Positions 273 through 59,605 of a DNA stretch of 64,000 nt are shown here, in pieces. Both the position numbers and the translations under genes were made by a program. The stretch is from NCBI GenBank assembly GCA_044227045.1, contig JBGAFW010000002.1, positions 131,457 to 195,456 on the forward strand, written 5' to 3'. How positions within the stretch are numbered: the first letter of the stretch is position 1; the number at the start of each line of letters is the position of its first letter. The DNA is from Labilithrix sp. (lineage in GTDB: Bacteria > Myxococcota_A > Polyangia > Polyangiales > Polyangiaceae). The notes under the pieces are model-generated. The model did no database searches. It saw nothing but the letters and a program-made list of their open reading frames with translations, and was not told the DNA's origin.

Positions 273-1415
273 TTAGTTCACGCCGACGCGGGGGCAGCCG
301 AAGACGAGGTCGACGTGGCCGATGTCGTCGACTTTGACGGCGTCGCAGGTGGCGGCGCAGAGGATGACTTTTTTCGGGGCGGCTTCGTTGTCGAAGTACC
401 AGCCGTTGTTGGGGGCTTTGGCGCAGCCGGCTTCGTTGCCGACGAAGACGAGCTGGGAGGTCTGGCCGCTTGCTTGGGTGTACGTGACGTTCGTTTGCTT
501 GGCGTCGATCTGGCCTGTCGGGATGTCGTAGTCGCAGGGGATCGCTTTGCGTCGGATGCCGTCGAGCGCGGCGAGGAGGGACGCTTGCGCGTTGCCGCCC
601 GTGTCGATCAGCGTCGCGGTGCCGGTGCCGCCGGCGGCGGCGATGGCGTCGAGGGCTTTGAGCTCGCCGCCGACGCCGATGACGAACGTCGTGATCGAAG
701 GTGTGCCCTTGAACGCTAGGTCGGCGACGGCGACCGCGTTGTCGAGCGTGTTCGGCAGCGCGCCCGTCGCGGAGTCGCCGGCGAGGCAGGTGTCGTCGGG
801 GAAGCCGTCGGTGGCGAGGACGAGGACGGGCTTTCGGCCTGGGGTGAGGTTGGCGACGAGGTATTTCGAGAGGCCTTGGAGCAGCGGGACCATCGGCGTT
901 CCACCGGACATCTGCTGCAGATCGAGCGCGGCGCCGATCGGGCCGGAGGCTTGGGGCTGCAAGGTGAGCGGGACGGCGGGCGCTTGGTAGTCCGGGACGC
1001 TGCACTGCTTGCGGATCGGGAAGAATTGAAGACCGACCTTCAGCTCGGCGTAGGCGGGATTCGACACGAACGTCTTCAGCGCGTCGCGGACGTTCGGCCA
1101 CTTGCTGTCGAAGTCCATCGAGAAGCTCGTGTCGAGGCCGATGACCATGTCGACCGGTTGCTTCTCGGCTTTCTTCGTCGTCGTGGCGCAGCCTTCGCCG
1201 TCGAGGTTGTTGCCACCACCGTCATCGCCGATGAAGCCGCTCGTGCTTCCGCTCGATGACGAGGTGTTGTCGGTGGCTTCCGAGTCGGAGCCGCAGGCCG
1301 CGAGGCCGAGCGCTCCCGAGGTGGCGATCGCCACGCCGGCGATCGTGAGGAGGCTTGCGATGGTCTTCGCGTGGCCCGTTGCCTGAGCCGTTGCGTAGAG
1401 GTTGCTCTGTTTCAT
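273..1415 (-). CDS. Secreted lipoprotein with von Willebrand factor A (vWA) domain
   Basis: N-terminal signal peptide with lipobox LAACGS. MIDAS-like motif VDMVIGLDTSFSM (DxSxS) in the C-terminal half. Lies directly downstream of the Cys-rich repeat gene on the same strand. Confidence 0.75.
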   Translation of the reverse strand: MKQSNLYATAQATGHAKTIASLLTIAGVAIATSGALGLAACGSDSEATDNTSSSSGSTSGFIGDDGGGNNLDGEGCATTTKKAEKQPVDMVIGLDTSFSMDFDSKWPNVRDALKTFVSNPAYAELKVGLQFFPIRKQCSVPDYQAPAVPLTLQPQASGPIGAALDLQQMSGGTPMVPLLQGLSKYLVANLTPGRKPVLVLATDGFPDDTCLAGDSATGALPNTLDNAVAVADLAFKGTPSITTFVIGVGGELKALDAIAAAGGTGTATLIDTGGNAQASLLAALDGIRRKAIPCDYDIPTGQIDAKQTNVTYTQASGQTSQLVFVGNEAGCAKAPNNGWYFDNEAAPKKVILCAATCDAVKVDDIGHVDLVFGCPRVGVN

Positions 1416-1418
1416 GGC

Positions 1419-3788
1419 TCAACCTCCACACGAGAGAAGACCGCCGCAGCGATCGGGTGGCGTGCCTGTTCGACCCTTGCACGTGTCCTTCACGCACTGG
1501 CAGGTGCCTGCCGTGCACGTGAAGTTCTCGTTGCCTGCGCCGCTCGGGCAGCCGCAGTTGATCGTGCCGCCGCAGCCGTTCGTGAGGGCGCCGCACGCGC
1601 TGCCGATGCCTTGGGCAGGGCAGACCGCGGGCGTGCAGCAGACGTTCGGGTTTGCGGAGGTGTTGCACGTCTGGCCCCCAGGGCAGTTGCACGTGATGGT
1701 GCCGCCGCAGCCGTCGTTGAACGGACCGCACTTGTCGCCCGTCGGGCTCGACGGTCCGTTCGGGACGTTGCCGCAGTTGTAAGGAGCGCCCGTGCCGTTG
1801 TTGCACTGGCAGTCGCCGATCGCGCCAGGCGTCGCGGCGTCGCACGTCTTGCCCGTCGCGCAGCCGCAGTCGATCTTGCCGCCGATGCCGTTGTCGAGCT
1901 GCGTGCCACACTTGCCGGCGTACGGAGCGGTTCCGCACGTGAGGGCCGACTTGCAGACGCCAGCGCCGTCGACGCCCGGGACGCACGTGTGGTTGGCGCA
2001 CCAGCACGTGCGGCCGCCCTTGCAAGCGCAGTCGATCGACGAGCCACAACCTGGCGTGACTGGGTTGTGCGTCGTGTTGCACTCGCCACCCTCGCCGCCG
2101 TTCAGCGTGCACGCGGCCGCGGGCGTGCAGCAGTTGTTGTTGAAGCACGTCGTGCCGACCGTGCTGCAGTTGCCGTTGCAGCTCACGGTCGTGCCCGCGG
2201 GCCTGCACGAGTTCTGAACGGGGGCGCACTGTCCGGCCGTTTGCGTGCACGTGTCGGTACGCGTGCAGCACGAGCCGACGGTGCCTGGAGGCGGCGCGGG
2301 TCCCGGTTGACCGTTCGCGTTGTTCACGCACTCCTTGCCGCCGCCGCAGCTGGCGTTGATGTTGTTGAGGCCGCAGCCGTTCGGCAGGTTCGTGCCGCAC
2401 TGGCCTTGGCTCGTGTAGGACGTGGCTGTCTTTGGCGTGCAGCACATGCCCGTCCCGGTCGTCACCGGCGGGGCAGGGGAGACGCCGCCGTCGGCCGTGC
2501 ACGTCGCGGGGTTCGTGCACGTGCAGTCGATGACGTTTTGTCCGCAGCCATTCGGCAAGTCGAGGCCGCACTTGCCGGCGTACGTCGTGTTGCACGCGAA
2601 GCCCGCGCAGCACGTGTGCGTGGTGTTGTCGCACGGGCCATTCGGGCACGTCCCGCACGTCAGCGTGCCTCCGCACGAGTCGTCGAACGTTCCGCACTGG
2701 AACGCCGCGAAGTCCGCGCACGTCTTCGGCGTGCAAGGCGGACCGCAGACGCCGTTGGCGTTGCAGACCTGACCCGTCGCGCAGTCGCCGCAGTTGATCG
2801 TCGCGCCGGTGCACGCGCTCTTGATCGTGCCGCAGTTCTTGCCTTGCGCCTTGCACTCGTCGGGCGTCGACTTCGGGTCACAACGATTGGCGATGCCGTG
2901 CACGCCGCAGCTCTCCCCGTTCTTGCAGCCGAAGCCAGCGACGGTGTCGCAGTTCACGGTGCCGCCGCAGCCGTTCGAGATGACGCCGCATTCGACGCCC
3001 TTCGTCGAGGCCTTCGCCGCGTCGCAGAGCTCCTTGGCGGTCTTCACCGCCGTGCACGAGGGAGTACCGACGGTCGGCTCGCAGGTGTGGAACACGTTGT
3101 TGCACGTCTTGCCGGCGCCGCAGCTGCCGCAATCTGTGTAGTTTGCAGGTATGTCTTCGCCACAGCCAAGCCAGGCGTGACCGCACTCGATGCCGAGGTC
3201 CTTGCACGTGACCGCTTGGCAGTCGCGACACTTGTGCGTGTCGGGATCGCATTCCTTGCCTGCGCCGCAGCCCTTCGGGTTGCCGTCGGGGCAGTCGAGG
3301 TAGTCACCGCAGCTGTTCTTGATCGTCCCGCACTCGGCGCCGAGATCGGCGCACGTTCGCTTCGGCGCGGAGCACGAGTTCGTCGCGAGATCGCAGACGC
3401 GTGGACCGGCATCGCCGCCGTCGGCGGTCGTTCCGTTCGTGCAGCCGCCGCATTGCTTGATGACGCCCGTGCAGGGATCCTTCACCGGACCGCATTTGCC
3501 GGTGCAATCGATCGCCTCGGCGTCGGGTGTCGCGTCGAGGCAGGCGACGTCCGCGCCGGCGTCGCTGATCGACTCTCCGTCAGGGAGCGGCGTGATGTTG
3601 CTGTCCGTGGTGTTCCCACCCTCCTCACCGCCGTCGTTGGTCTGCGCGGCAGGAGTGTCTTCGTCGCTGCCACATGCCGCGAGACCTCCGCCAATCGCGG
3701 CCGCGAGCAACAGGACTCCAGAGAGCACAACCCACCGAGATCTCGTCAGGGCACGAGAGTTGGAAACCTGGGTCCGGTTCATCGACAT
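1419..3788 (-). CDS. Cysteine-rich repeat lipoprotein (myxococcal Cys-rich repeat family-like)
   Basis: 789 aa; signal peptide plus lipobox LAACGS. Dozens of degenerate CG..C.DG.C / C..G..C repeats throughout, resembling the myxococcal cysteine-rich repeat. The 811-aa Ala/Arg-rich ORF on the opposite strand is a GC-frame shadow. Confidence 0.8.
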   Translation of the reverse strand: MSMNRTQVSNSRALTRSRWVVLSGVLLLAAAIGGGLAACGSDEDTPAAQTNDGGEEGGNTTDSNITPLPDGESISDAGADVACLDATPDAEAIDCTGKCGPVKDPCTGVIKQCGGCTNGTTADGGDAGPRVCDLATNSCSAPKRTCADLGAECGTIKNSCGDYLDCPDGNPKGCGAGKECDPDTHKCRDCQAVTCKDLGIECGHAWLGCGEDIPANYTDCGSCGAGKTCNNVFHTCEPTVGTPSCTAVKTAKELCDAAKASTKGVECGVISNGCGGTVNCDTVAGFGCKNGESCGVHGIANRCDPKSTPDECKAQGKNCGTIKSACTGATINCGDCATGQVCNANGVCGPPCTPKTCADFAAFQCGTFDDSCGGTLTCGTCPNGPCDNTTHTCCAGFACNTTYAGKCGLDLPNGCGQNVIDCTCTNPATCTADGGVSPAPPVTTGTGMCCTPKTATSYTSQGQCGTNLPNGCGLNNINASCGGGKECVNNANGQPGPAPPPGTVGSCCTRTDTCTQTAGQCAPVQNSCRPAGTTVSCNGNCSTVGTTCFNNNCCTPAAACTLNGGEGGECNTTHNPVTPGCGSSIDCACKGGRTCWCANHTCVPGVDGAGVCKSALTCGTAPYAGKCGTQLDNGIGGKIDCGCATGKTCDAATPGAIGDCQCNNGTGAPYNCGNVPNGPSSPTGDKCGPFNDGCGGTITCNCPGGQTCNTSANPNVCCTPAVCPAQGIGSACGALTNGCGGTINCGCPSGAGNENFTCTAGTCQCVKDTCKGRTGTPPDRCGGLLSCGG

Positions 3789-19396: not shown

Positions 19397-19429
19397 CAAG
19401 AAAACGGCGTCGCTCGTGAGAGCGACGCC
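19397..19429 (-). terminator. Rho-independent terminator downstream of the 19459..20769 gene
   Basis: Perfect 10-bp GC stem ggcgtcgctc/gagcgacgcc with a 4-nt loop, followed on the minus strand by GTTTTCTTG. Confidence 0.5.
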
Positions 19430-19458
19430 GTGTTCCATGGCTTTACGATGTCGTCAGA

Positions 19459-23582: not shown

Positions 23583-24152
23583 TCAGTTGCCGCCCTGCTG
23601 CGCGCCGAAGCACTGGCTCGCGCACTGGTCGATCGCGTCACACGCGGCGGTGTTCTGCTGGCAGATCTGGTCCGCTTGCTGGCTGCACTTCTGATCGCAC
23701 TGCTGATCTTGGCACTGGTTGAAGCACGCCGAGATCTGATCGTCGATCTGCTTGGCTTGCGGGTTCGGCGCGATGCAGGTCTGGAAGCACGCCTCGGGGT
23801 CGCCACCAGGCGGAGGCGTCGCGCCGGAGGACGAGGACGACGAGGACGAGGACGACGTCGTCTGCACGCCACCAGTCGACGAGCTGCTGCTGCTCGTGTT
23901 CGTTCCACCCGAGCTCGTGTTCGCGCCGGACGAGGAGGAGGACGACGAGGACGCGCCGTTCTTCGAGTTGCTGCCGCTGCTGCCGCCGCTGCTGCTCGAG
24001 GAGGAGCTGCTCGTGGTCTTCTTCCCGCTCGTGTTGTCGTCTTCGCCGTCTCCGATCTGCTGCCCAGGCGAGGGTGAGCTGCATCCGATGGCCGCCGACA
24101 GGCTGGCGAGTGCGAGAATCGTCGTGAGCGAGAGGAGCGTCGTGGTCTTCAT
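23583..24152 (-). CDS. Ser-rich low-complexity lipoprotein with Cys/Gln-rich C-terminal domain (start MKTTTLL)
   Basis: Signal peptide with lipobox AAIGCSS, poly-Ser/Gly tracts, C-terminal CFQTC...CFNQCQDQQCDQKCSQQADQICQQNTAACDAIDQCASQCF. Confidence 0.5.
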   Translation of the reverse strand: MKTTTLLSLTTILALASLSAAIGCSSPSPGQQIGDGEDDNTSGKKTTSSSSSSSSGGSSGSNSKNGASSSSSSSSGANTSSGGTNTSSSSSSTGGVQTTSSSSSSSSSSGATPPPGGDPEACFQTCIAPNPQAKQIDDQISACFNQCQDQQCDQKCSQQADQICQQNTAACDAIDQCASQCFGAQQGGN

Positions 24153-24369: not shown

Positions 24370-24630
24370 GACGGAGATGCCGTGCTCTGCCGAAGTCCGC
24401 GACGACATCGGCAGAGCGGAAATGCCGGGCTCTGCCGAAGTCCACGACGACATCGGCAGAGCGGAAATGCCGGGCTCTGCCGAAGTCCGCGACGACATCG
24501 GCAGAGCGGAGATGCCCGGCTCTGCCGAAGTTCGCGACGACTTCGGCAGAGCGGAGATGCCGGGCTCTGCCGAAGTCGCGACGACTTCGGCAGAGCGGAG
24601 ATGCCGGCCCTGCCGAAGTCCGCGACGTCA
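24370..24630. repeat. Tandem array (~5.5 copies) of a 45-bp unit containing a 9-12 bp inverted repeat CTCTGCCGAAG...CTTCGGCAGAG
   Basis: Unit gctctgccgaagtccgcgacgacatcggcagagcggaaatgccgg repeated head-to-tail from 24384. The whole unit is repeated, so there are no unique spacers. The array lies between two minus-strand genes. Confidence 0.85.
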
Positions 24631-25779
24631 GGGCTCGTCGTCGTCGCCGCCGCTCGCGACGTAGTCCGCGATCGCCCGCCGCTCACGCTCGAGGAACGAC
24701 CCGATGACGCCTCGAAAGCGCGCGTCCTCGACGTGATGCGCCGAGTGCGTCATCGTCGGGACGAAGCCGCGGACGCGTTTGTGCTCGCCGCCGGCGCCTG
24801 GGTTGAACGTCGCGAGGCCGTGGCGGATCGCTTCGTCGATGCCGTGGTAGTAGCAGACGTTGAAGTGGAGGAAGGGGAGGTCGACGGTCGTTCCCCAGTA
24901 GCGACCGTAGAGGATCTTGTCCTTCTGGATGTTGAACGCGCTCGCGACGATGTGGCCTTTCGCGTCGCGCGCGACGACCCAGGCGAGGCGGTGCGCGAAG
25001 CGCTGGCGAACGAGGTCGAAGAATTTCTTCTTCAGGTAGCGACGGCCGTAGAAGTACTTGTCGACCGTCGTGGTGTAGAGGTCGAACATCGTCTCGGCGA
25101 TCGCTTCACCGCGCTTGCCTTCGAGATCCTTCGGGCCGAGCGTCTCGATCGTGAGGCCGTCCATCGCTGGCTGCTTTCGTTCGCGACGGATCTGCGTGCG
25201 CTTCTTCTGCGGAAGCGTCTTCAAGAAATCCTCGAACGTCGCGAAGCCGTCATTCGACCAGTGGTACTGCACGCCGCTTCGCATCATGAAGCCGGAGGCG
25301 CCCCACATCTCGGCTTCGGCGCGCTCGGGAAAGAGGACGTGCGCGCTCGACAGCTCCATCTCCTTCGTGATCGTCGTGATCGCCTTGGCGAAGATCGCGA
25401 CCGTCTCTGCGCGGTCGCGCGAGGGATGCCAGAGGACGCGATGCCCCGTCGCGGGAGTGAAGGGGACCGCGAGGATGAGCTTCGGGTAATAGGCGATGCC
25501 CATGCGGTTCGCGAGATCGGCCCAGCTCCAGTCGAAGACGAACTCGCCCTCACTGTTCATCTTCAAGTACGCGGGCGCGGCGCCGACGACCTTGTCGTTG
25601 TCGTAGAGGACGAGGTGGCGCGGCATCCATCCGGTGCGCCCGCCGACGCAGCCGGCCTCCTCGAGGCAGTCGAGCCAGGCGTGCTCCACGAACGGCGAAG
25701 CGTCCTCGCGAACGAGGGCGTTCCACGCGTCTGCGGGTACCTCACGAATGCGCTCGAGGACGCGTAATTCGAATGCCAA
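24628..25779 (-). CDS. GNAT-fold FemAB-like acyltransferase family protein (conserved hypothetical, DUF482-like)
   Basis: 383 aa. Resembles the FemAB-like/GNAT family recalled from other proteobacterial genomes. Motifs LYGRYWG, FNPGAGGEHK. Confidence 0.6.
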   Translation of the reverse strand: MAFELRVLERIREVPADAWNALVREDASPFVEHAWLDCLEEAGCVGGRTGWMPRHLVLYDNDKVVGAAPAYLKMNSEGEFVFDWSWADLANRMGIAYYPKLILAVPFTPATGHRVLWHPSRDRAETVAIFAKAITTITKEMELSSAHVLFPERAEAEMWGASGFMMRSGVQYHWSNDGFATFEDFLKTLPQKKRTQIRRERKQPAMDGLTIETLGPKDLEGKRGEAIAETMFDLYTTTVDKYFYGRRYLKKKFFDLVRQRFAHRLAWVVARDAKGHIVASAFNIQKDKILYGRYWGTTVDLPFLHFNVCYYHGIDEAIRHGLATFNPGAGGEHKRVRGFVPTMTHSAHHVEDARFRGVIGSFLERERRAIADYVASGGDDDEP

Positions 25780-25782
25780 GCG

Positions 25783-26379
25783 TCAGTTCGGATCCCGGCG
25801 CACGAGCGCGAACCACTGGTTGCGATGCTTGCCGTTCTTGTACGCGACACCGATCGACACGTGCGTGGAGATGCCGCGGAGGTAGTCGACCATTCCGCCG
25901 TTGACGATGCCTGCGATGCCGCCTTCGTTCGTCTTGATCTCGGGCCAGCTCGGCGCCTTCACCTTCGGGATGAGGGAGTAGTCGATGACGAGCTCACCTT
26001 CATGATCGCCTTCGCCCTTCGTGACGCCGAAGTATCCGGGGCCGGTGAACGGCTCCATCGACTGGCGGTTGAAGCCCGCGATCGTGAAGCGCGGATCGGA
26101 GCCTTCTTCGAGCTTCACGAAACGCTTCTGGAACTGCGAAAACAGCGGCAGCGTGTTGTGACCGTCGTGGATGACCTCGACGAGTGGACCTACGGAGGAG
26201 GGGACGAGGAAGTCGAGGTCGAGCGGACGGAAGCCCTTGGCGGCTTCGTAGAGCGCCTCGTGGTGATGCTTCGTCCACTGGCGAATCGTGTGGTAGCGGC
26301 CTTCGTGCCCGAGCCCGTCGAGGACTTCGGAGATGCGCTGGAGGTTGATCGTCGGCTCGAGGAAGGTGGTGATGTCCAT
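25783..26379 (-). CDS. Hypothetical protein (198 aa, start MDITTFLEP)
   Basis: GC-typical codon usage. The 5' Arg-rich extension of the ORF-track entry and the antisense ORF 25825..26451 were rejected. Confidence 0.5.
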   Translation of the reverse strand: MDITTFLEPTINLQRISEVLDGLGHEGRYHTIRQWTKHHHEALYEAAKGFRPLDLDFLVPSSVGPLVEVIHDGHNTLPLFSQFQKRFVKLEEGSDPRFTIAGFNRQSMEPFTGPGYFGVTKGEGDHEGELVIDYSLIPKVKAPSWPEIKTNEGGIAGIVNGGMVDYLRGISTHVSIGVAYKNGKHRNQWFALVRRDPN

Positions 26380-27146: not shown

Positions 27147-27845
27147 GTGGCCCGCGCCAAGCGCAGCAGTGTCGGCAGCATCGACGAGACGCCCGTCCTC
27201 ACGCCGCTTCCACGCTCCTTCTACGAACGCGACGCGCTCGTGCTCGCGCGCGAGCTCATTGGAACGAGGCTCGTCGTCAAGGCACCTCGCGCGTCGTCGA
27301 TGCGCGTCGCGCGGATCGTCGAGACCGAGGCGTATTGTGGCCCCGAGGATCTCGCCTGCCACGCGCGGGTAGGGATCACCGAGCGAACGAAGACGATGTA
27401 CGGGCCGGCCGGCCATGCGTACGTGTTCCTCATCTACGGCATGTATGACTGCTTCAACATCGTCACCTTCGGCGATGGCAAGGGGCACGCGGTGCTCGTG
27501 CGCGCGGTCGAGCCGATCGCGGGCATCGCCGACGGCGTCTCGACGGACGGCCCCGGCAAGCTGACCCGCGCGCTCGGCATCACGAGGAGCGACAACGCCG
27601 CCGACCTCGTCGGCCGATCAGGGGCCCTCGGATCGAGGCTCTTCGTCGCCGCGCGCGATCCGGAGCGCTCACCTCCGAAGATCGGCGTTAGCGCGCGCGT
27701 CGGCGTCGCGTACGCAGGCGAGTGGGCCGACCGGCCTTGGCGCTTCTTCGATCGCGAGAGCGAGCACGTCTCGAGGCCGCCGGCGCGTTCGATCGGCCGC
27801 CCGGTCACCCCGGCCGCGTCTTCGTCGAAGACGAAGACCAGGTGA
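27147..27845 (+). CDS. DNA-3-methyladenine glycosylase (AAG/Mpg family)
   Basis: FYERDALVLARELIG..., VETEAYCGPEDLACHA, HAYVFLIYGMYDCFNIV, which is the Mpg family signature. Confidence 0.8.
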   Translation: MARAKRSSVGSIDETPVLTPLPRSFYERDALVLARELIGTRLVVKAPRASSMRVARIVETEAYCGPEDLACHARVGITERTKTMYGPAGHAYVFLIYGMYDCFNIVTFGDGKGHAVLVRAVEPIAGIADGVSTDGPGKLTRALGITRSDNAADLVGRSGALGSRLFVAARDPERSPPKIGVSARVGVAYAGEWADRPWRFFDRESEHVSRPPARSIGRPVTPAASSSKTKTR

Positions 27846-27965
27846 GGCTGTGCCGAAGTCGGCGCGGATCTCGGCAGAGGCCGGGGATCCGACGCCGGAG
27901 CTTTCTCTGCCGAAGTCGGCGCGGATTTCGGCAGAGCCCGTCCTCTGCCGAAGGCGGCGCGCGAG
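27846..27965. repeat. Second locus of the CTCTGCCGAAG...CTTCGGCAGAG palindromic repeat family (about 3 units)
   Basis: ctgtgccgaagtcggcgcggatctcggcagagg then ctctgccgaagtcggcgcggatttcggcagagcc then cctctgccgaaggcggcgcg. In a convergent intergenic region. Confidence 0.7.
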
Positions 27966-28065
27966 GGTGACCGGACCGGGGCGAACCGAGGCGCTGCGCG
28001 GCGTATCGTGAAATACACCCGCGGCTCGTCGTGATCTCGGTGGGGTGTCGAGAGAGAGAGACCTC

Positions 28066-28623
28066 TCAGTGTGTCTCGATGAGCGCCTTCACGTCTTTGA
28101 AGCGCTCGTTCGGGATCGGCACCGACAAGTTGTATTGTGCAATCTTCCAGGTGCCGTGGTCGGTCTTGACGAGGACGCCGGTGCCGCGCGCGGGGCCGAG
28201 GTTGGGCGTGTCGAGGTCTTCGTCGAACCACGCGGTGTCGTTGACGAACGTGATCTCGCGGCGCGTCGCGCGAAACGACCACGCCTTGCCCTTGGCGAAG
28301 TGCGGATGTGCGTACGCGCGAAACTCGGGGACCGTCCATCGCTCCTTGCCGTCGGTGCCGAGGAACACGCCGCCTTCGGCGAAGTGGGAGAAGTAGCGCG
28401 GCTCGTCGGCCTTCGCGGCGGCGTCGTGGAAGTCGTCGAGCACGCGGCCGACCTCGGCGTCCGTCGCGCCGCCTTTGCCGATCACGGCGTTGCTCGGGGC
28501 TGCGATCGCCGGCGGACCGCCCGCGGCGGGGCTCGGGCACGTTGGCTTCGCGCCCTGGCCTGCGCATCCGAGGAGCAGGGTGAGGACGATCACGGAGTGC
28601 TTCGTGGTGCAGAGGGGATTCAT
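28066..28623 (-). CDS. NTF2-like / SnoaL-like fold lipoprotein (DUF4440-like)
   Basis: Signal peptide with lipobox LLLGCAG. About 150 aa globular region with a W..E/Y pattern typical of the NTF2-like fold. Confidence 0.5.
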   Translation of the reverse strand: MNPLCTTKHSVIVLTLLLGCAGQGAKPTCPSPAAGGPPAIAAPSNAVIGKGGATDAEVGRVLDDFHDAAAKADEPRYFSHFAEGGVFLGTDGKERWTVPEFRAYAHPHFAKGKAWSFRATRREITFVNDTAWFDEDLDTPNLGPARGTGVLVKTDHGTWKIAQYNLSVPIPNERFKDVKALIETH

Positions 28624-30301: not shown

Positions 30302-31087
30302 ATGAGCATGAAGTCGCGATCCGTCTTTGCGTCGTCTGCTCTCCTCCTTGGCTTGATGGCGGTCTCGTTCCCCAGCGAGGCACAACCTCGCGCCGGCACA
30401 CCGGAGGTCCTTCCTCCACCGAGCGGCGGCGCAGGGCCCGCCGCGGACGCGCCTTCGGGATCCGGATCGGGATCGCAGCAGCAAGGCGCGGCAGGTGAGG
30501 GCAAGGCGTCGCCGAAGTCGTCGTCGAACCTCGGCGGCTACGCCTACGACGACAAGCCGGCGCGCAAGACGACCGCAGGCGCCGCTCCGCGCGGTCGCTA
30601 CCGCCACTCGGGGCCGGTCGTGAACATCCCTGGCTTCGAGCAGACGACCGACGGTGGCTCACGCCTCTTCGTGCAGCTCTCGCAGAGTGTCCCGGTGGAG
30701 GAGCGCAAGGCGCAGGGCACGATCACGTACGTGCTGAAGGGCGCGAGCCCGCGCGTGTGGAACAACACGAACGCGCTCGTCACCGTGCACTTCAACACGC
30801 CGGTCGCACGCGCGCGTCTCGTCCCGTCGGGGCAAGACCTCCAGTTCATCGTCGAGCTCCGTTCGAACGCATCTCCGACCTGGAAGATGAGCGACATGCC
30901 GGACAAGAGCACGATGCTCACGATCGACTTCCCGAAGGGCGACTACCTGACGGGCGCGCCGATGGACGTGCCCGCCGCGCAGCCGCAGGGAAAGCCGGCG
31001 AAGCGTGGCGGCAAGCCGGCCAAGCCCGCCCCGAACACGAACGGCGCCGCGAAGCCGGACGAAGTCGCGCCGCCGGCCACGAACTGA
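30302..31087 (+). CDS. Secreted protein, possibly AMIN-like domain (start MSMKSRS)
   Basis: Signal peptide AVSFPSEAQP, Gly/Ser/Pro-rich linker, beta-rich domain LFVQLSQSVPVEE...ITYVLKGASP, Lys/Pro-rich tail. Confidence 0.45.
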   Translation: MSMKSRSVFASSALLLGLMAVSFPSEAQPRAGTPEVLPPPSGGAGPAADAPSGSGSGSQQQGAAGEGKASPKSSSNLGGYAYDDKPARKTTAGAAPRGRYRHSGPVVNIPGFEQTTDGGSRLFVQLSQSVPVEERKAQGTITYVLKGASPRVWNNTNALVTVHFNTPVARARLVPSGQDLQFIVELRSNASPTWKMSDMPDKSTMLTIDFPKGDYLTGAPMDVPAAQPQGKPAKRGGKPAKPAPNTNGAAKPDEVAPPATN

Positions 31088-35727: not shown

Positions 35728-35991
35728 ATGTACGTCTGCGTTTGCCTGGCAGTCACCGAGAGCGAGGTCCGAGAGGCGATCGACGATGGCGCGATGACGC
35801 GCGAGGCAGTGACGCGCGCCTGCAGGGCGGGCGGCGACTGCGGCGCCTGTCACGGCATGATCGGCGAGATGATCGAAGACAAGCTCGAAGCGGTGCATGC
35901 ACAGACCGCGTGTCCGATGTCATCGTCTTCTCCTGACTCGCAGGAGCAGCTCGTCCCCGAGACCGCGCTCGTTCGCAAGAGCGCCGCTTAA
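35728..35991 (+). CDS. bfd: Bacterioferritin-associated ferredoxin (BFD-like [2Fe-2S] domain)
   Basis: MYVCVCLAVTESEVREAIDDGA...ACRAGGDCGAC. Confidence 0.8.
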   Translation: MYVCVCLAVTESEVREAIDDGAMTREAVTRACRAGGDCGACHGMIGEMIEDKLEAVHAQTACPMSSSSPDSQEQLVPETALVRKSAA

Positions 35992-36001
35992 GGCCGCTCG
36001 C

Positions 36002-36769
36002 TCACGACGTCATCACGGCTTTGTCGCGGTCGCCGCAGAGCCACTCGACGAGGAACGAGGCGACGTCGCCAGGCTTCGTGCCGGGGCCAAAGCCTGCGTC
36101 GAAGCCGAGCTCGAGGGCGAGTTTGTGGTCGATGCGCGGTCCGCCGAGGAGGAGGACGACCTTGTTTCGCCAGCCTTCGCGCTTCGCGAGATCGACGAGC
36201 GCCGCGGCGTTCTCCTTGTGGCAGTTGCGTTGGGTGATGATCTGGCTGACGAGCACGGCGTCGGCGTTCAGCGCGAGGGCGCGCTCGGCGAGGGTGGCGT
36301 TGTCGACCTGGGCGCCGAGGTTGTACGCCTCGAAGCACTTGTAGCTCTCGAGGCCTTTGTCGCCCGCGTAGCCCTTGTAGTTGAGGATCGCGTCGATGCC
36401 GACGGTGTGCGCGTCCGACCCGGTGCAGGCTCCGACGACGACGATCTTCCGGCCCAGGCGGGTATCGACGCGATGGTGGATGTCCTCGCGCGAGAGCGCT
36501 TCAGTGCGGACCTCCGGGACGTCGATCGTCGACGGATCCACCGCGTGCGACGAGTGACCGTAGACGACGAAATACGTGTAGCCCTCGGCGCACGTCTCCA
36601 TCGTCGAGACGAGCGGCTCGTGGAGACCGTGAAGCTCGGCGAACTTCTTCGCCGCCTCACGCGCGCGCGCCGACGGCGGCATCTCGAGGACGAACGACAT
36701 CTGAACCATGCCGTCGCCCTGGCGGTCGCCATAGGCGCGGAGCATTTTTGCGGGCGCGGTCGGATGCAT
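36002..36769 (-). CDS. kamE: Lysine 5,6-aminomutase beta subunit (B12-binding) - start probably MHPTAPAK at ~36769 (ORF to 36925)
   Basis: B12-binding DxHxxG motif in GACTGSDAHTVGIDAIL. LLLGGPRI...LGFDAGFGPG. Confidence 0.8.
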   Translation of the reverse strand: MHPTAPAKMLRAYGDRQGDGMVQMSFVLEMPPSARAREAAKKFAELHGLHEPLVSTMETCAEGYTYFVVYGHSSHAVDPSTIDVPEVRTEALSREDIHHRVDTRLGRKIVVVGACTGSDAHTVGIDAILNYKGYAGDKGLESYKCFEAYNLGAQVDNATLAERALALNADAVLVSQIITQRNCHKENAAALVDLAKREGWRNKVVLLLGGPRIDHKLALELGFDAGFGPGTKPGDVASFLVEWLCGDRDKAVMTS

Positions 36770-46696: not shown

Positions 46697-48202
46697 GTGA
46701 CCGCGGCAGAGAGCAGCGTGGCGAGCGTCGGGCGTCGCCATCGTCGTCGCGACGGCATCGTCGTGTTCGGCGTCGCGCTCGCGATGCGGCTCCTCGTCGT
46801 GGCGTGGGCCGGCTCGTCGTTCCCGCCCTCTGCCGATGGGACCTATTACAACAAGCTCGCGATGCGCATCGCCGAGGGCCACGGCTACACGTGGCTCTGG
46901 GACGACGGCGCCGTGACGTATGCGGCGCATTACCCCGTCGGCTACCCCGCGATGATCGCCTTCGGGTATGTCCTCTTCGGCGCAAAGCCGATCGTCGCGA
47001 TGATCTTCAACGCCCTGATCGGCGCGCTCGCGTCCGTGTCGCTGTGGTCCGTCGTCGCTCGGCAGGGCAGCCTTGCGCCGCCCGAAGGCCGCGCGCGCTG
47101 GTCGGTCTCACGGGAGACGCTCGCGCTCCTCGCAGGCCTCGCGCTCGCGATCCATCCGGTCTTCGTCCCGTACACCGCGGCGATCATGACCGAAGGCGTC
47201 ACGGCGTCTCTCCTCGTCATCGCGACGGCGCTCGCGGCGCGCGCACGCGACGAGGCGTCCACCTCGAGGCGTCGCGGGCTCATCGTCGCGACCGGCCTCG
47301 TCATGGGCGCAGCCACGCTTGTGCGGCCGCAGTCGCTCGCGCTCGCGCCGATCCTCGGCTGGCTCGCGCTGTCGTCTTCTTCGACGATGAAGCACCGCGC
47401 GCTCGCGGCGGTCCTCGTGCTGATGACCACGCTGGCCGTCTGCGCGCCGTGGACGGCCCGCAACTGCGTACGGATGGAGAAGTGCGCGCTCGTCAGCGTC
47501 AACGGCGGATGGAACCTCGCGATCGGCACGCAGACCGACAACGGTGGGTGGCACGAGATCGCCGTGCCGGCGGCATGTCGCGAAGTCTTCCAAGAAGCCG
47601 CGAAGGACGAGTGCTTTGGTCGCGAGGCGATGAAGGTGATCGCGGCCCATCCGATCGCGTGGCTCGCGCGCGCTCCAGCGAAGCTGCGCGTGACCTTCGA
47701 CTATTTCGGCGCCGCGCCGTGGTACTTGCATGATGCAAACAAAGAGCGTTTCCCGTACCGCGCGAAGGTCGCGCTCGGCGCGATCGAGACGCTCGCGTCG
47801 AGGCTGCTCCTCGCCGCGGCGCTCGTGACGGTCTTTCGAATGCGGCTCGCGTCGTCGACGGCGCTCGATCGCGCGCGCAAGATCGCGTGCGTGGTGGGGC
47901 TCGTCGCGTGCGTGGCGGTGCCTGGCGTCATCGGCTACCTCGCGCTCGCGGTCGGCATCCTCTTGCTCGGCCGGCGCGCGCTCGCCGAGGTGCCCCTCGT
48001 GGTGCCCTTCACGTCGGCGATCATCCTGGTGACGGCCGCGACGCATGCCGCCTTCTTCGGCGCCGGCAGGTACGGCATGGTCGTGGTCCCGTTCGTCACC
48101 GCGGTCGCGTTCGTCCGGTTCTCGACGCGAGAAGGGCTTGCGAAAACGACCGAGCGAGCCCATCCTTCCGCTGTCGGCGCCGTACAGGCGATCGTCGGTT
48201 GA
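46697..48202 (+). CDS. Polytopic membrane glycosyltransferase (ArnT/PMT, GT39/GT83-like)
   Basis: In-frame GTG start right after the maf stop. More than 10 TM helices. N-terminal loop GSSFPPSADGTYYNKLAMRIAEGHGYTW is typical of ArnT/PMT-family dolichyl- or undecaprenyl-phosphate sugar transferases. The upstream part of ORF 46421.. overlapping maf was rejected. Confidence 0.6.
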   Translation: MTAAESSVASVGRRHRRRDGIVVFGVALAMRLLVVAWAGSSFPPSADGTYYNKLAMRIAEGHGYTWLWDDGAVTYAAHYPVGYPAMIAFGYVLFGAKPIVAMIFNALIGALASVSLWSVVARQGSLAPPEGRARWSVSRETLALLAGLALAIHPVFVPYTAAIMTEGVTASLLVIATALAARARDEASTSRRRGLIVATGLVMGAATLVRPQSLALAPILGWLALSSSSTMKHRALAAVLVLMTTLAVCAPWTARNCVRMEKCALVSVNGGWNLAIGTQTDNGGWHEIAVPAACREVFQEAAKDECFGREAMKVIAAHPIAWLARAPAKLRVTFDYFGAAPWYLHDANKERFPYRAKVALGAIETLASRLLLAAALVTVFRMRLASSTALDRARKIACVVGLVACVAVPGVIGYLALAVGILLLGRRALAEVPLVVPFTSAIILVTAATHAAFFGAGRYGMVVVPFVTAVAFVRFSTREGLAKTTERAHPSAVGAVQAIVG

Positions 48203-48626
48203 CGCGATCTTCCGCAAGGGGGACCACGTGAACGGGAGGAAAGTCCGAGCTCCAAAGAGCGCGATGCCGGGTAACGCCCGGTGGCGGGAACGCCAAGGAA
48301 AGTGCAACAGAGAATAGACCGCCCAGCCAGGCTTCACGGCTTCGCTGGGTAAGGGTGAAACGGCGGGGTAAAAGCCCACCGCATCTCCAGCAATGGAGAT
48401 GGCGAGGCAGACCCCATCGGGAGCAAGGCCACATAGGCGGGTGCGCTCTGGAGGATCGAGGTCCGCGAGGATCGAGGTCCGTCGAAGGAGCAAAGGACGG
48501 CTCGTCCGAGCCCGCGGGTAGGCTGCTCGAGACGGCTGGCAACAGACGTCCTAGAGGAATGATACGCCGCCGCTCCCCAGGCGACTGGATGCGGAACAGA
48601 ACTCGGCTTACGGACGACGTCGACCA
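48195..48626 (+). ncRNA. rnpB: RNase P RNA, bacterial type A
   Basis: Conserved blocks GGAGGAAAGTCCGAGCTCC (P4 5' strand), GGGTAACGCC, GTGCAACAGAGAATAGACCGCC, GGTAAGGGTGAAACGGCGGGGTAAAAGCCCACCGC, GGAGCAAGGCCACATAGG, GGGTAGGCTGCTCGAG, GATGATACGCC...ACAGAACTCGGCTTA (P4 3' strand). Ends are uncertain by ±15 nt; the 5' end likely overlaps the last codons of the upstream CDS. Confidence 0.85.
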
Positions 48627-48646
48627 CGGAGCCCTCGCGTGTCACA

Positions 48647-48670
48647 GCGCGGGGGCTTCGCGCTTTCTTG
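48647..48670 (+). terminator. Possible terminator hairpin after rnpB
   Basis: gcgcg-ggggctt-cgcgc followed by tttcttgggg. Short 5-bp stem, so weak. Confidence 0.3.
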
Positions 48671-48718
48671 GGGACACACGCGAGGGCTTCGCGCTTTCTG
48701 ACACACGTCCGCGACGAG

Positions 48719-55256: not shown

Positions 55257-56170
55257 CCGTGCGCGTTCCTCTCGAGGGTGCGCGTCACCTCGTCTTCGAA
55301 GCGCGGGCTCGTCTTGCCTGGATAGAGTCGATGAAAGAGCGTCGTGTCGAGCGAAAGATCGCGCGGTCGCGGCTCACCGGGGACCGTCGTGCGCGACGCT
55401 CGTTCGATGTGAGCCTCGATCTCCGTCTCCGAGAGGCCGAGGACACGCGCGACGCGCGAGCCCATCTCGTAGCGGCTCATGCGCTCCGGTCCGCCGAGGT
55501 GGAGGACCCGCCCGGCAGGCGCAGGCACGGGCGACGCGGCGAGCGTCACGAGCCACTCCGCGGCGACGCGAAGCGACAACGGCGTGCGCCACTCGTCGTC
55601 GAAGAGACGCATCGTCTTCTTCTCACGAAGGGACGCGAGCTGATGGTCGAAGAACCCAAGCCGCGCGTTCCGCGTCGGCCCGAAGAGGAGCGGCATCCGC
55701 GCGACGATCGCGTCGGGCGATCGAGCGAGCACCGCGTCCTCTGCCTCGGCCTTCGTCCGTCCGTACACCGACGTGGGTGACCTCGCGGCGCGCTCGTCGT
55801 AAGGCGCTGCCTCCCCGTCGAAGACTTGATCGGTCGACACGTGCACGAGCCGAGCGCCGACCTCGACGCACGCCTTGGCGATGTTCGCCGAGCCCGTCAC
55901 GTTGACGAGCGCCGCCCGCGCGGGATCGCGGGCGCAATCGGCCGCGTTGAAGACCGCGGCATGGATCACAGCGTCAGGGCGAACGTCACCGAACACCTTC
56001 GCGACCGACGCAGGGTCTGTGACGTCGACCGGGTGGAGGTCGGCGCCCGCCGGCCGGTCGCGCGTGGGGCCGCTGCAGGCGGCGAACCGAACCCCACGCG
56101 CACGAAGCTCGGCGCAAAGGAATCCACCCAGCAGCCCCGTCGCTCCGGTGACCAGAATCACGGCGTGCAT
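55253..56170 (-). CDS. NAD(P)-dependent sugar-nucleotide reductase/epimerase (RmlD-like dTDP-4-dehydrorhamnose reductase family)
   Basis: Rossmann VTGATGLLGG and catalytic YGRTK. 4-nt overlap with add. Confidence 0.7.
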   Translation of the reverse strand: MHAVILVTGATGLLGGFLCAELRARGVRFAACSGPTRDRPAGADLHPVDVTDPASVAKVFGDVRPDAVIHAAVFNAADCARDPARAALVNVTGSANIAKACVEVGARLVHVSTDQVFDGEAAPYDERAARSPTSVYGRTKAEAEDAVLARSPDAIVARMPLLFGPTRNARLGFFDHQLASLREKKTMRLFDDEWRTPLSLRVAAEWLVTLAASPVPAPAGRVLHLGGPERMSRYEMGSRVARVLGLSETEIEAHIERASRTTVPGEPRPRDLSLDTTLFHRLYPGKTSPRFEDEVTRTLERNAHG

Positions 56171-56233
56171 TCTAGAGAATTGCCGCGCCAGCAGCTATCC
56201 ATGTTCCATGCGCTCTGGCGCTCGGAGAGACCA

Positions 56234-57133
56234 ATGATCGGGAAGCCGACTGTCGTGGGGTGCTGCTTCGTGTTGGGTGCTGCGGTCGCCGCGTTTGCGT
56301 GCAGCGGGGGCTCGGACGTCGCCGACACGAGCAGCAGCGGCTCGAGCGGAAGCAGCGGCTCGAGCGGCTCGAGCGGGAGCAGCGGCTCGAGCGGGAGCAG
56401 CGGGGATGGTGGAGCGCAGGGGAAGACGCGCTTCATCGAGGAGAGCGTCACGAGAGAAGACGCCGCGGAGTGGGACGGGAGCCCGATCGAGATCGTCGCG
56501 ACAGGCGTCTCGGTCGCCGTGAACGGTGGGCTTGTCGTCAACGCCGACGCGAACGCCACGAAGGTCAAGGCGACCGCACGCATGCTCGCGACCGCGTCGA
56601 GCGCCGACAAGGCCGCGGCCGACCAGACGCTGACGGACGCCAAGGCCACGTTCACGATCGCGAACGTCGGCGGCACCATCAAGATCACGTGCGGCCACGG
56701 CAACGCGCACGGGACGTCGAGCGCCGCGGAGTCTGGCTGCGAGAAGCTCACCGTGACGGTTCCACAGGGCAGCGCCGCGAAGCCGCTCGACATCAAGATG
56801 ACGTCCGGCAACGGCAACCTCGAGATCGGGTTTGCCGCCGCCTCGATCAAGTCGCTCAGCGCCAGCCAGGCGGGCGGCGATATCACCGCCTCGCTCGCCG
56901 CGACCAAGGGCGGAAAAATCACGCTCGTCGCGGAGTCGGGTGGGGACGTCACCGCGAAGATGCCGGCGGCTTGGTCTGCAGACCTCGTCGTGCTCGAGGC
57001 CGACGCCGCGCAAATTCAAAGCGGCGGCGTCGCGAACAACCAGCCCCATGGCACGATCGGTGAAGGGCTCGCGTCGCTCGAGATCACGAGCGCGGAGTTC
57101 GCCGGCACGACCGGCGCGATCACGCTCGAGTAA
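56234..57133 (+). CDS. Lipoprotein with (GSS)n linker and beta-rich repeat domain (DUF4097/adhesin-like?)
   Basis: MIGKPTVVGCCFVLGAAVAAFACSGG lipobox, then SSSGSSGSSGSSGSSGSSGSSG. Upstream part of ORF 55826.. rejected. Confidence 0.55.
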   Translation: MIGKPTVVGCCFVLGAAVAAFACSGGSDVADTSSSGSSGSSGSSGSSGSSGSSGSSGDGGAQGKTRFIEESVTREDAAEWDGSPIEIVATGVSVAVNGGLVVNADANATKVKATARMLATASSADKAAADQTLTDAKATFTIANVGGTIKITCGHGNAHGTSSAAESGCEKLTVTVPQGSAAKPLDIKMTSGNGNLEIGFAAASIKSLSASQAGGDITASLAATKGGKITLVAESGGDVTAKMPAAWSADLVVLEADAAQIQSGGVANNQPHGTIGEGLASLEITSAEFAGTTGAITLE

Positions 57134-58007: not shown

Positions 58008-58409
58008 ATGGCGGGTATGGGGATCCCGACCGTCACCGCTCTCTACGGCTCGCTCAACGCCATCCTGAATGTCTACCTCGCCAACCGCGTCTCGACGGTC
58101 CGGCGAAAAGAGAAGGTCGGGTTGGGTGACGGCGAGTCGAAGGAGCTCCTGACTGCGATCCGGATCCACGGAAACAACGCCGAGTTCGTCCCGCTCGCGA
58201 TCGTGATGATGCTCCTCGCCGAGCTCTGCAACGGCTCGAGCATCGTCTTGCACGTCTACGGCGGCCTCCTCTTCGTCGCGAGGCTGGCGCACGCGTTCGG
58301 CATGCCAAAGCGCGCACCCAACCCATTCCGCTTTGGAGGCACCGCGATCACGTGGGTCGGCATCGTCGCGATCTCCGCCTGGGTCCTCTGGCTACGCGGT
58401 CACCCGTAG
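58008..58409 (+). CDS. MAPEG-family membrane protein (microsomal GST-like)
   Basis: 133 aa, 3-4 TM helices. Motif R.HGNNAEFVPLAIVMMLLAEL matches the MAPEG consensus R.H.N..E..... Confidence 0.7.
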   Translation: MAGMGIPTVTALYGSLNAILNVYLANRVSTVRRKEKVGLGDGESKELLTAIRIHGNNAEFVPLAIVMMLLAELCNGSSIVLHVYGGLLFVARLAHAFGMPKRAPNPFRFGGTAITWVGIVAISAWVLWLRGHP

Positions 58410-58429: not shown

Positions 58430-58565
58430 CTCCGCTCTGCCGAAGTGGCCCGCGCATTCGGCAGAGCCCAGAATCGCGGCTCTGCCGAAGTGGTCGCGCG
58501 TTCGGCAGAGGCCAGAATCGCGCCTCTGCCGAAGTGGTCGCGCATTCGGCAGAGCCGAGCGTCGC
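58430..58565. repeat. Third locus of the CTCTGCCGAAG...CTTCGGCAGAG palindromic repeat family (3 tandem ~45-bp units)
   Basis: gctctgccgaagtggcccgcgcattcggcagagcccagaatcgcg repeated three times with small variations. In a convergent intergenic region. Confidence 0.75.
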
Positions 58566-58570
58566 TGGCG

Positions 58571-59605
58571 TCAGTGGGCGGGCTCTTTGAGGACCTTGAC
58601 CGTGTCGCCGCGGACCTCGAGGACCTCGATGGGGCCGCCGTAGAATTTCGAGAGCCCGATGTCGATGCGCCACGCCTTGTCGTCGCAGGCTGGGCTGATG
58701 TCCGGCTTCTGCACGGTGTGACCCATGATCATGCGCTTCGCGTTGAGGAGCTTCAGCGCTTCGTCGAGCTGCGCGCAGTCTTCGCGGCTCGGCGCGGCCG
58801 AGTACATGCGCGTCCAGAGCGGGCCGTCTTCGGCGGTGAGCGCGCTTGGGGGATCGCGGCGCTCGCCGAGCAGCCACGACTTCGTGTCGCTGTTGATGTC
58901 GTCGAGGCCGGCTTTGACGTGCTTCGGGAGCACGCCGCCGTGGACGAAGATCGAGTCGCCGACGCGCGCGACGACAGGACGCGTCGCGATCATCTTCGCG
59001 ACAGGGCCGCCTGGAAGAAACGCACAGGCACGACCACGCTGCTCGCTCTCGACGTGCGACGCGGCGGCGGCCATGCGGTCGTCTTTCGGATTCACGTCGA
59101 CGAAGCTCGAGAAGGCGCCGCGCGTGACGTAGCGGAAGTCGAGCTGCGCGTTCATGATCTCGTGGTTGCCCACGAGCGCGACGACCTGGCCGCCAGCGAG
59201 CTTGGCGCTCTCTTTGAGCTTCTCGAAGAGGTCGAGGATCTTGCGGTCGTCGTCGCCGCGGTCGACCTCGTCGCCGGTCTGGACGACGACGAGCCTGCCG
59301 CCGACCCAGCCGTCCTTGTCGTCGATCGCGCCGGCGAGCTTCAGCGCGCGGCGCGTCGACTCGAGGTCACCGTGCAGATCGCCGATCGCCACGAGGCGCT
59401 CGGGCACGGGCGTCGACACACCAAGCGAGCCCACCGGTCGCGCGGGCGGCGGGGCCGTTCGCGTCGGCGCGGGCGGAGGTGTCGGCTCGGGCTTGGACTT
59501 CTCACAGGCGAGGAGCGCGACCACCGCGAGCGACGTCACGCTCACGCACACCGATCGCCCGAGCGGACGCGAGCGCTGCGAACGTCGAGCCTTCGTGAGG
59601 TTCAC
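58571..59605 (-). CDS. Calcineurin-like metallophosphoesterase lipoprotein (PPP-family / Ser-Thr phosphatase-like)
   Basis: Lipobox LLACEKS. Motifs GDLHGD, GDEVDRG, GNHE, HGG. Confidence 0.75.
   Translation of the reverse strand: MNLTKARRSQRSRPLGRSVCVSVTSLAVVALLACEKSKPEPTPPPAPTRTAPPPARPVGSLGVSTPVPERLVAIGDLHGDLESTRRALKLAGAIDDKDGWVGGRLVVVQTGDEVDRGDDDRKILDLFEKLKESAKLAGGQVVALVGNHEIMNAQLDFRYVTRGAFSSFVDVNPKDDRMAAAASHVESEQRGRACAFLPGGPVAKMIATRPVVARVGDSIFVHGGVLPKHVKAGLDDINSDTKSWLLGERRDPPSALTAEDGPLWTRMYSAAPSREDCAQLDEALKLLNAKRMIMGHTVQKPDISPACDDKAWRIDIGLSKFYGGPIEVLEVRGDTVKVLKEPAH

Follow-up and report, generated by a model that had tools for sequence, protein, structure and literature searches.

Introduction

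Repetitive extragenic palindromic (REP) elements are well studied in gamma-proteobacteria. They usually occur in more than 100 dispersed copies per genome, and the REP-associated tyrosine transposase (RAYT) is normally single-copy per genome. In our literature searches, no description of REP-type elements in Myxococcota was found. Here, we describe a family of palindromic hairpin units that occupies three intergenic loci in a 64-kb stretch of DNA (hereafter, the window) from an uncultured soil Labilithrix-like myxobacterium. We consider it fairly probable that these units form a lineage-restricted, REP-like family of extragenic palindromes that expands by slippage and serves as a hairpin in 3' untranslated regions (UTRs).

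Two further groups of bacterial repeats lend themselves to comparison. Mycobacterial interspersed repetitive units (MIRUs) are 40-100-bp intergenic direct tandem repeats whose copy number varies between strains; they are not known to be built around a strong palindrome and lie within operons, with small open reading frames (ORFs) overlapping the flanking stop and start codons. The DNA uptake sequences (DUSs) of Neisseria are found as inverted pairs after genes, and solitary copies, some of them within genes, are very common too.

As for the REP class itself, a conserved GTAG or CGTC tetranucleotide marks one end of the palindrome (PMC3733652; PMC8266576), and the RAYT Y1 transposases that mobilize or maintain REPs need the GTAG as a guide (PMC8266576). 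Some REP clusters consist of single elements repeated in tandem along with adjoining DNA (PMC3733652). In E. coli, translation is down-regulated by REPs that lie closer than 16 nt to a stop codon (Liang et al., 2015, as reported in PMC12306157).

The window was compared with contigs from Logan assemblies, Joint Genome Institute (JGI) contigs, SRA samples and metagenome-assembled genomes (MAGs), all designated below by L numbers. Neighbouring genes were delimited by codon-position GC content and Pfam matches; the nearest named homologues of the flanking proteins belong to Labilithrix sp. and 'Myxococcales bacterium 68-20' MAGs, at ~80% identity. The unit alignment comprises 12 units, 10 from the window and two orthologous single units, and a covariance model, R2, was run on the window and on ~120 kb of relatives' loci. 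Motif scans covered 185,579 species-representative genomes, JGI metagenome contigs and the viral contigs of IMG/VR; they were non-exhaustive, as the matching JGI contig L060 was missed.

Anatomy of the Hairpin Unit

The three loci hold 10 complete hairpin units and 2 partial ones. Each unit spans 32-34 nt, with a stem of 9-13 bp closing a loop of about 9-13 nt. An invariant 9-bp core stem, CTCTGCCGA/TCGGCAGAG, is present in all complete units, AAGT is conserved after the left arm, and the 21 invariant columns of the alignment all fall within the arms and this AAGT. Loops and flanks or spacers are near-identical within a locus and differ between loci; the unit flanks are variable, reading G/C then CTCTGCC... 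at one end and ...GGCAGAG then C/G at the other. Judging by the asymmetry of loop, spacer and AAGT, all units share one direct, head-to-tail orientation. Stem quality varies even within array 1, where units 4 and 5 have perfect 13-bp stems and units 1-3 an A/A mismatch at stem position 10.

The motif is strongly concentrated at these loci. Allowing at most one mismatch, the arm CTCTGCCGAAG occurs 25 times in the window against 2.3 expected, with 21 of the 25 occurrences in the three loci. The window has 21 exact copies of the 9-mer CTCTGCCGA, where 1.4 would be expected; the three loci hold 20 of them, and the one solitary exact core elsewhere compares with the 1.4 expected by chance. Full hairpins of the form TGCCGA-N8-22-TCGGCA number 10, against 0.22 expected. 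When folded as RNA, single units reach -21 to -25 kcal/mol with z-scores of -2.5 to -5.0 (below -3.4 in seven of eight folds), and for array 1 in its entirety the value is -170.7 kcal/mol (z -10), its pairings crossing registers.

Each of the three loci is bounded by two stop codons or by a stop codon and the following gene, and two of them touch or replace the stop codon. Units lie 0-3 nt from a stop codon or contain it at the first two loci and, where locus 3 has a single copy, at that locus as well, and the C-termini of two proteins, a FemAB-like protein (locus 1) and a methylpurine-DNA glycosylase (locus 2), have been altered by the elements.

A preliminary description of the window had proposed a dispersed family of REP-type extragenic palindromic units, laid out as ~45-bp tandem repeats at three loci. 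The arms common to the three loci bear out the family, and Tandem Repeats Finder (TRF) recovers the tandem arrangement at loci 1 and 3, with periods of 45 and 44 bp. At locus 2 the arrangement fails: this locus is irregular, with no 45-bp tandem, and consists of two hairpins 57 bp apart followed 38 bp further by a solo left arm. Of the 10 units, only 2 have the inverted repeat in a perfect 11-bp form, the invariant core being 9 bp. The same account was right that the loop is conserved within a locus and different between loci, and that locus 1 lies between co-oriented minus-strand genes and loci 2 and 3 between convergent genes. It had placed the end of array 3 at 58565; counting the degenerate last spacer copy, the array runs on to about 58569.

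Amplification in Place at Locus 3

In the window, the three units of array 3 occupy a 161-nt gap between a MAPEG gene and a convergent metallophosphoesterase gene. The array is reproduced base for base in independent Logan assemblies of other samples (L054 and L055). A second lineage, at 91-94% nucleotide identity (L060, L061, L063 and L064), has exactly one unit, CTCTGCCGAAGTGGTCGCGGAGCTCGGCAGAG, at the same position, 2-3 nt after the MAPEG stop codon in a MAPEG-metallophosphoesterase gap of 49 nt. In L062 and L065, this single unit carries an uncompensated T>A change in its left arm. Because the 91-94%-identical lineage has one unit where the window has three, the comparison indicates that array 3 is the product of in-place tandem amplification of a single ancestral hairpin. 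Contigs from a third lineage (L056-L059) all end 29 nt into array 3, with L058 and L059 placed without alignment to the window.

A derivation of the loops from target-site sequence was considered: loci 1 and 2 offer short suggestive matches, but at locus 3 the loop is already present in the orthologue with one unit. As a separate observation, L062 carries an IS630-like transposase gene (725-1692; a faint HTH_Tnp_IS630 match and DDE_3) directly upstream of the MAPEG gene, and this gene is absent from both the window and L060.

Strain Polymorphism at Locus 2

Locus 2 differs in presence rather than in copy number among close strains, so that the comparison of copy number and location across relatives that the preliminary description had called for yields one unit versus three at locus 3 and presence versus absence here. 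The hairpins recur base for base in L052, an independent Logan assembly (100%). They are absent from L051, whose flanks are 99.4-99.7% identical and which belongs to the same run series (SRR2848038x), and from L042, at 96-98% identity. Unit 1 begins 2 nt past the glycosylase stop codon TGA (27843-27845), and the glycosylase ends in ...KTKTR* in the array-bearing allele versus ...KTKTKSRAR* in the array-free allele.

A 44-bp segment, CCCGCGGCTCGTCGTGATCTCGGTGGGGTGTCGAGAGAGAGAGA, by the stop codon of the SnoaL-like gene (window 28024-28067) is present in the window and L052 and absent from L042 and L051. Nearby single-nucleotide polymorphisms and this 44-bp indel segregate with the hairpins as one haplotype. 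Since the segment and the hairpins travel together, the pattern suggests that the whole intergenic allele at locus 2 was exchanged by recombination.

Array 1 and the FemAB-Like Gene

Array 1, the largest of the three, follows the FemAB-like gene and precedes a Ser-rich lipoprotein gene (23583-24152), both genes being on the minus strand. Its terminal degenerate unit reaches into the FemAB-like gene, whose last Pro codon and stop codon (24628-24630, minus strand) both fall in the right arm. Accordingly, the gene ends in ...GACGACGAG CCC TGA in the window versus ...GACGACGAG TGA in relatives (GAG CCC TGA versus GAG TGA). The array was found in every close strain sampled (L032, L033, L042 and L066), and these four contigs break within it from either side, so its copy number rests on the source assembly. 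At the syntenic loci of relatives with 82% FemAB-like protein identity, including GCA_001899635.1, no unit follows the FemAB-like stop codon; the intergenic gap after this stop measures 475 bp in the window versus 192-224 bp in those relatives.

Two blocks between 24160 and 24370 of the window, GGATCCAGATCAGCC and (G)ATGATCCCACAT, are common to the window and to the same relatives, and array 1 is inserted upstream of them. From their conservation and position, these blocks may be the promoter or regulatory region of the Ser-rich lipoprotein gene. The coordinates of the elements and their neighbouring genes are collected in Table 1.

Table 1. Hairpin elements and adjacent genes in the window
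Feature	Coordinates	Strand	Details
Array 1	24372-24627	+	TRF: period 45, 5.7 copies, 93% matches, score 435
Array 1, composition			5 complete 45-bp units, each spacer CGGAGATGCCGGG plus hairpin
Array 1, hairpins	24385-24416, 24430-24461, 24475-24506, 24520-24551, 24565-24595	+	covariance scores 56-58 bits
Array 1, terminal degenerate unit	24608-24633	+	CCCTGCCGAAGTCCGCGACGTCAGGG; also found in L042 and L066
FemAB-like / GNAT gene	24628-25779	-	3' end overlapped by array 1; Pfam PF04339, 1.5e-132; GC3 0.88
Methylpurine-DNA glycosylase (MPG) gene	27147-27845	+	Pfam PF02245
Locus 2, hairpin unit 1	27848-27879	+	left arm CTGTGCCGAAGT, one uncompensated change
Locus 2, hairpin unit 2	27905-27936	+	25-26-nt spacer after unit 1
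Locus 2, solo left arm	27943-27954	+	CTCTGCCGAAGG; 3' half CGAAGG also in array-free allele of other strains
SnoaL-like gene	28066-28623	-	convergent to MPG gene across locus 2
MAPEG gene	58008-58409	+	upstream of array 3; stop codon 58407-58409
Array 3	58434-58569	+	three 44-45-bp units, last spacer copy degenerate; spacer CCCAGAATCGCGG; TRF: 58434-58556, period 44, 2.8 copies, 91% matches
Array 3, hairpins	58435-58466, 58480-58510, 58524-58554	+	
Metallophosphoesterase gene	58571-59605	-	convergent to MAPEG gene; stop codon 58571-58573

Coding Potential and Transcription Termination

The arrays are non-coding. ORFs through array 1 have a GC content at third codon positions (GC3) of 0.61-0.74, versus 0.83-0.93 for real genes, and they stay open because a 45-bp unit amounts to 15 codons; array 3, with its period of 44 bp, does not keep a reading frame in this way, 44 being no multiple of three. 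None of the array ORFs has a Pfam match. A concatenated six-frame translation, searched against 5.8 billion proteins, retrieved nothing at E<=10, and the 131-aa array ORF found only 8 weak matches among 1.84 billion representatives, all of them unrelated repeat proteins. The ORF at 24377-24664, which the preliminary description had listed and called spurious, does exist and is spurious on the same grounds: no Pfam match, no homologues and an atypical codon-position GC. Nor, by the lack of Pfam matches and homologues, are the arrays part of a conserved coding region, the outcome that would have overturned that description.

A coding repeat or small protein is one of several readings that we regard as extremely improbable, together with a CRISPR-like array, pairs of uptake sequences and an assembly artefact. 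What speaks for them is that ORFs cross array 1 and that the repeats are regularly spaced and partly palindromic. Apart from the coding evidence above, each fails on its own terms. A CRISPR array is rejected because the 13-nt spacers are identical within an array and no cas domains occur among the window proteins. DUS pairs are rejected because 20 of the 21 exact cores lie inside the three loci, with solitary arms at chance level, and an artefact is rejected because independent assemblies of other samples contain identical copies of arrays 2 and 3.

It is also very unlikely that the units are duplicated canonical intrinsic (Rho-independent) terminators acting in both directions, a function that had been suggested for them at the outset. 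GC-rich, stable hairpins straight after stop codons, at two of three loci between convergent genes, are what such a reading would predict. However, on neither strand does a unit have a U/T tract after it, and a scan with the terminator consensus misses the units. Terminators with a hairpin and T-tract are used elsewhere in the genome, at 19400-19435 and twice after the RNase P RNA (48643-48706). This RNA, of class A, lies at 48176-48625 (+; 249.6 bits); right after it, a 31-bp repeat present in 2.1 copies forms two terminator-like units, GCGCG-GGGGCTT-CGCGC TTTCTT. In a search of the window with Rfam 15 at the gathering score, the RNase P RNA was the only match. At a relaxed threshold, the arrays matched sub-threshold models of eukaryotic miRNA precursors only, a generic hairpin similarity.

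Searches for Further Copies

Model R2 detected no further copy in the window and none in the ~120 kb of related loci. The next-best matches in the window (30503-30540 and 26304-26339) are weak coding-region similarities. Among the species-representative genomes, the pattern CTCTGCCGAAG-N8-16-TCGGCAGAG matched 31 loci, which are isolated hairpins from unrelated taxa, lack a second arm nearby and occur at about the chance rate. The JGI metagenome contigs gave no match to a two-unit pattern and 7 to a single-unit pattern, all unrelated and either on low-GC contigs or in coding sequence, in a scan that missed the matching L060; the IMG/VR viral contigs gave no motif match. The genome-wide abundance that the preliminary description had proposed is thus an extrapolation from 64 kb, and it finds no support in these non-exhaustive scans.

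Two MAG contigs, L017 and L022, have one matching hairpin each and show no detectable close homology to the window. In L022 (an uncultured delta proteobacterium MAG, 69% GC), a single hairpin at 3050-3086 has identical arms, CTCTGCCGAAGT-TGCCGGAA-TCGGCAGAG, scores 39.8 bits with R2 and lies in a large intergenic region with the palindrome AACTCGGTCCGGACCGAG on both sides. A tblastx comparison of the L022 locus with the window revealed no similarity. The L022 hairpin could be a chance occurrence or a distant relative of the family.

Other Repeats in Relatives and in the Window

Arrays of comparable build occur in relatives. In L048, a hairpin array of 39 bp x 5.6 (1937-2155; GCGCACGCG-N12-CGCGTGCGC) lies between convergent B12-binding and Fer2_BFD genes, and it resembles the window arrays in its 9-bp GC-rich stem, its ~12-nt loop and its setting in a convergent-gene gap. 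L043 has a 36-bp x 3.2 array (2827-2938) that is called as a 51-aa 'gene', the hairpin and convergent setting being established for the L048 array only. The repeat periods of both fall, with those of the window arrays, in the range of 36-45 bp. Spurious ORFs have been called on the L048-type array in L047 and on the L043 array, just as on array 1. The arm sequences of both arrays are unrelated to the window family, and each array was seen once in 21 kb; the window gap orthologous to the relatives' array site, around 35990-36002, is empty and only ~11 nt long. Recurrence of the same architecture with a different arm sequence in L048 suggests a clade-wide habit.

The window contains further repeats of other kinds. 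A near-perfect 21-bp x 4.4 tandem, TGCACGGGATTGGGTGCAGTC (63647-63738, 98% matches), has a small palindrome, CTGCAC...GTGCAG, in each unit; it lies in the 5' portion of a long ORF on the minus strand (61927 to beyond 63963), in frame with its period of 7 codons. TRF also reports in-frame 9/18/27-bp repeats, AGCGGCTCG..., at 56336-56404, overlapping a predicted gene (55826-57133), and 15/33-bp repeats, CATACGGCTGCTGTC..., at 59908-60022. At 1402-3141 (+), several high-GC3 ORFs merely shadow, in antisense, the gene of a secreted Cys-rich repeat protein of 789 aa (1419-3788, -); GC3 alone thus miscalls genes in this genome.

Comparison With Known Repeat Families

The window units resemble the REPs and bacterial interspersed mosaic elements (BIMEs) of gamma-proteobacteria, such as the palindromic units (PU/REP) of E. 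coli, the REPs and paired REPs (REPINs) of Pseudomonas and the SMAG elements of Stenotrophomonas, in being GC-rich imperfect palindromes of 20-40 nt. Like REPs, they are strictly extragenic and sit mostly at gene 3' ends, often a few nucleotides from or overlapping stop codons. Lineage-specific sequence, variability between strains, the lack of a U-tract and the capacity to form tandem clusters of a unit with flanking DNA are further common traits. In the size and stability of the stem-loop and in its extragenic 3'-end siting, the family thus agrees with the structural and positional definition of a REP.

The differences are equally specific. Neither end of the units bears the GTAG/CGTC tag, and the units run head-to-tail, whereas those of BIMEs and REPINs alternate in orientation. 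Only the arms are conserved across the window loci, with loops being locus-specific. No RAYT was found among the proteins of the 64 kb searched. Of the features by which REPs are recognized, the tag and the alternating orientation are therefore lacking, as is, so far and within 64 kb, the association with a RAYT. It is reasonable to regard the units as a new lineage-restricted REP-like family, set apart by its amplification in direct tandem and by conservation confined to the arms.

Comparison with MIRUs and other variable-number tandem repeats rests on the direct repeats of 45 and 44 bp, the one versus three units at locus 3 and the presence or absence of locus 2 by strain. Unlike MIRUs, two of the three window loci lie between convergent genes, array 3 has a 44-bp period and the array 1 ORFs lack a coding signature. 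With Neisseria DUS pairs and the Correia elements or neisserial intergenic mosaic elements (NIMEs), the family shares conserved 10-12-nt arms inverted around variable loops just downstream of genes; in contrast to Neisseria DUSs, its solitary arms occur at chance level only. The term 'MITE-like' (miniature inverted-repeat transposable element), also used in the preliminary description, finds no support: neither terminal inverted repeats with a target-site duplication nor a clean insertion junction were seen, and the window encodes no transposase.

A Model for Expansion and Function

On the analysis as a whole, the REP/BIME-like family probably expands by slippage and acts as a 3'-UTR hairpin. 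Its basic element would be a hairpin of 32-34 nt with a fixed core stem and AAGT and a variable loop of 9-11 nt. Single elements would settle at gene 3' ends, 0-3 nt from the stop codon or overlapping it, and would then expand in place into head-to-tail arrays, carrying along a piece of flanking spacer. Amplification would most likely proceed via replication slippage or unequal recombination. Misalignment by whole units would be expected because each right arm is the reverse complement of every left arm and can pair with that of the following unit as readily as within its own hairpin; as DNA, the register that joins right arm n to left arm n+1 is predicted at -12.9 kcal/mol, about as stable as the normal one at -14.

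Once transcribed, the units would fold into highly stable stem-loops that lack U-tracts, and at least one gene would have them in its 3' UTR. REPs serve as the analogy for their function: most likely, they would form a barrier to 3'-5' exonucleases and provide factor-dependent insulation between converging or adjacent transcription units; from their proximity to stop codons, a role as a brake on terminating ribosomes is possible as well. Spread to new loci would presumably depend on a trans-acting factor, for which a RAYT-type Y1 transposase offers the precedent.

Several observations weigh against this model. The three known loci all fall within the 64-kb window, and in the scans, non-exhaustive as the miss of L060 shows, the motif never occurs more than once per genome or metagenome contig. 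The ~50 window proteins analysed with Pfam include no Y1/RAYT or other transposase. Beside the stem, none of GTAG, CTAC, CGTC and GACG occurs in the 12-unit alignment, so the REP tag is absent. No compensatory substitution was seen in the stem, both arm mutations (C>G in locus 2 unit 1 and T>A in L062) being uncompensated; as a consequence, there is no sign that pairing, as opposed to sequence, is under selection, and the units may simply be young. Finally, the junctions at locus 2 are not those of a clean insertion, as 18 nt of the empty allele (CGCGCGCACGCTGATCGG) are replaced by ~103 nt, and this allele contains arm-like fragments (AAGTCG..., TCGGCGAAG and CGAAGG). These messy junctions and fragments leave gain, loss or decay, and recombinational import of an allele indistinguishable.

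The lack of compensation is what one would expect if the conserved thing were sequence rather than pairing, and if the arrays were bound cooperatively, as duplex DNA, by a protein dimer with sequence specificity, be it a nucleoid-associated protein, a regulator or a gyrase-like factor. Conservation is also asymmetric, AAGT extending beyond the core on one side only, and E. coli BIMEs bind integration host factor (IHF) and gyrase (PMC2817692). We consider this explanation quite improbable, given that the sites lie at 3' ends between convergent genes and not at promoters, and that loop length (9-11 nt), and hence half-site spacing and helical phasing, varies. Their presence and copy number moreover vary among near-identical strains, which argues against an indispensable site.

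The condition of locus 2 bears on a different explanation, in which the units are resident native 3' hairpins that do not move, their arms shared through ectopic gene conversion or convergent selection for a hairpin-binding factor and their arrays produced by minisatellite expansion. The empty allele of locus 2 has a native 8-bp GC hairpin, which, with the arm-like fragments, fits conversion of a pre-existing hairpin; the single unit of locus 3 keeps its orthologous position across lineages about 6-8% diverged; and a non-mobile hairpin would agree with unclean junctions and a window free of transposases. Even so, this explanation appears unlikely. Twenty-one identical arm nucleotides recur at three unlinked loci 3 kb and 30 kb apart around unrelated loops, and conversion would have copied the loops as well. 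Relatives at 82% FemAB-like identity lack a hairpin of this sequence at locus 1, and arrays of the same architecture in relatives carry other arms, which resembles family turnover.

The same junctions admit one more reading, which we judge distinctly unlikely: a self-propagating 3'-end element different from a RAYT-driven REP. Here, a factor would read the 12-nt arm CTCTGCCGAAGT, and the arm would be installed at stop-adjacent hairpins, or convert them, through microhomology or template switching. Such elements, embedded in stop codons, would regulate translation termination and mRNA decay in Myxococcota, with related lineages having arms of their own. This mode of installation would account for loops that are specific to a locus, for the untidy junctions and for the fragments resembling arms that the empty allele contains.

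Significance

The natural series at locus 3, with one unit versus three, and the presence or absence of locus 2 at >99% identity together show the birth and the turnover of such arrays. The arrays also have practical consequences. They break short-read assemblies, six Logan contigs from six samples (L032, L033, L042, L066, L056 and L057) ending inside array 1 or array 3, and they give rise to spurious ORF calls and change the C-termini annotated for adjacent genes. The window family is a local example of the well-known REP class and not a new kind of system. If proximity to the stop codon acts as it does for E. coli REPs, these elements would tune the expression of the genes upstream of them.

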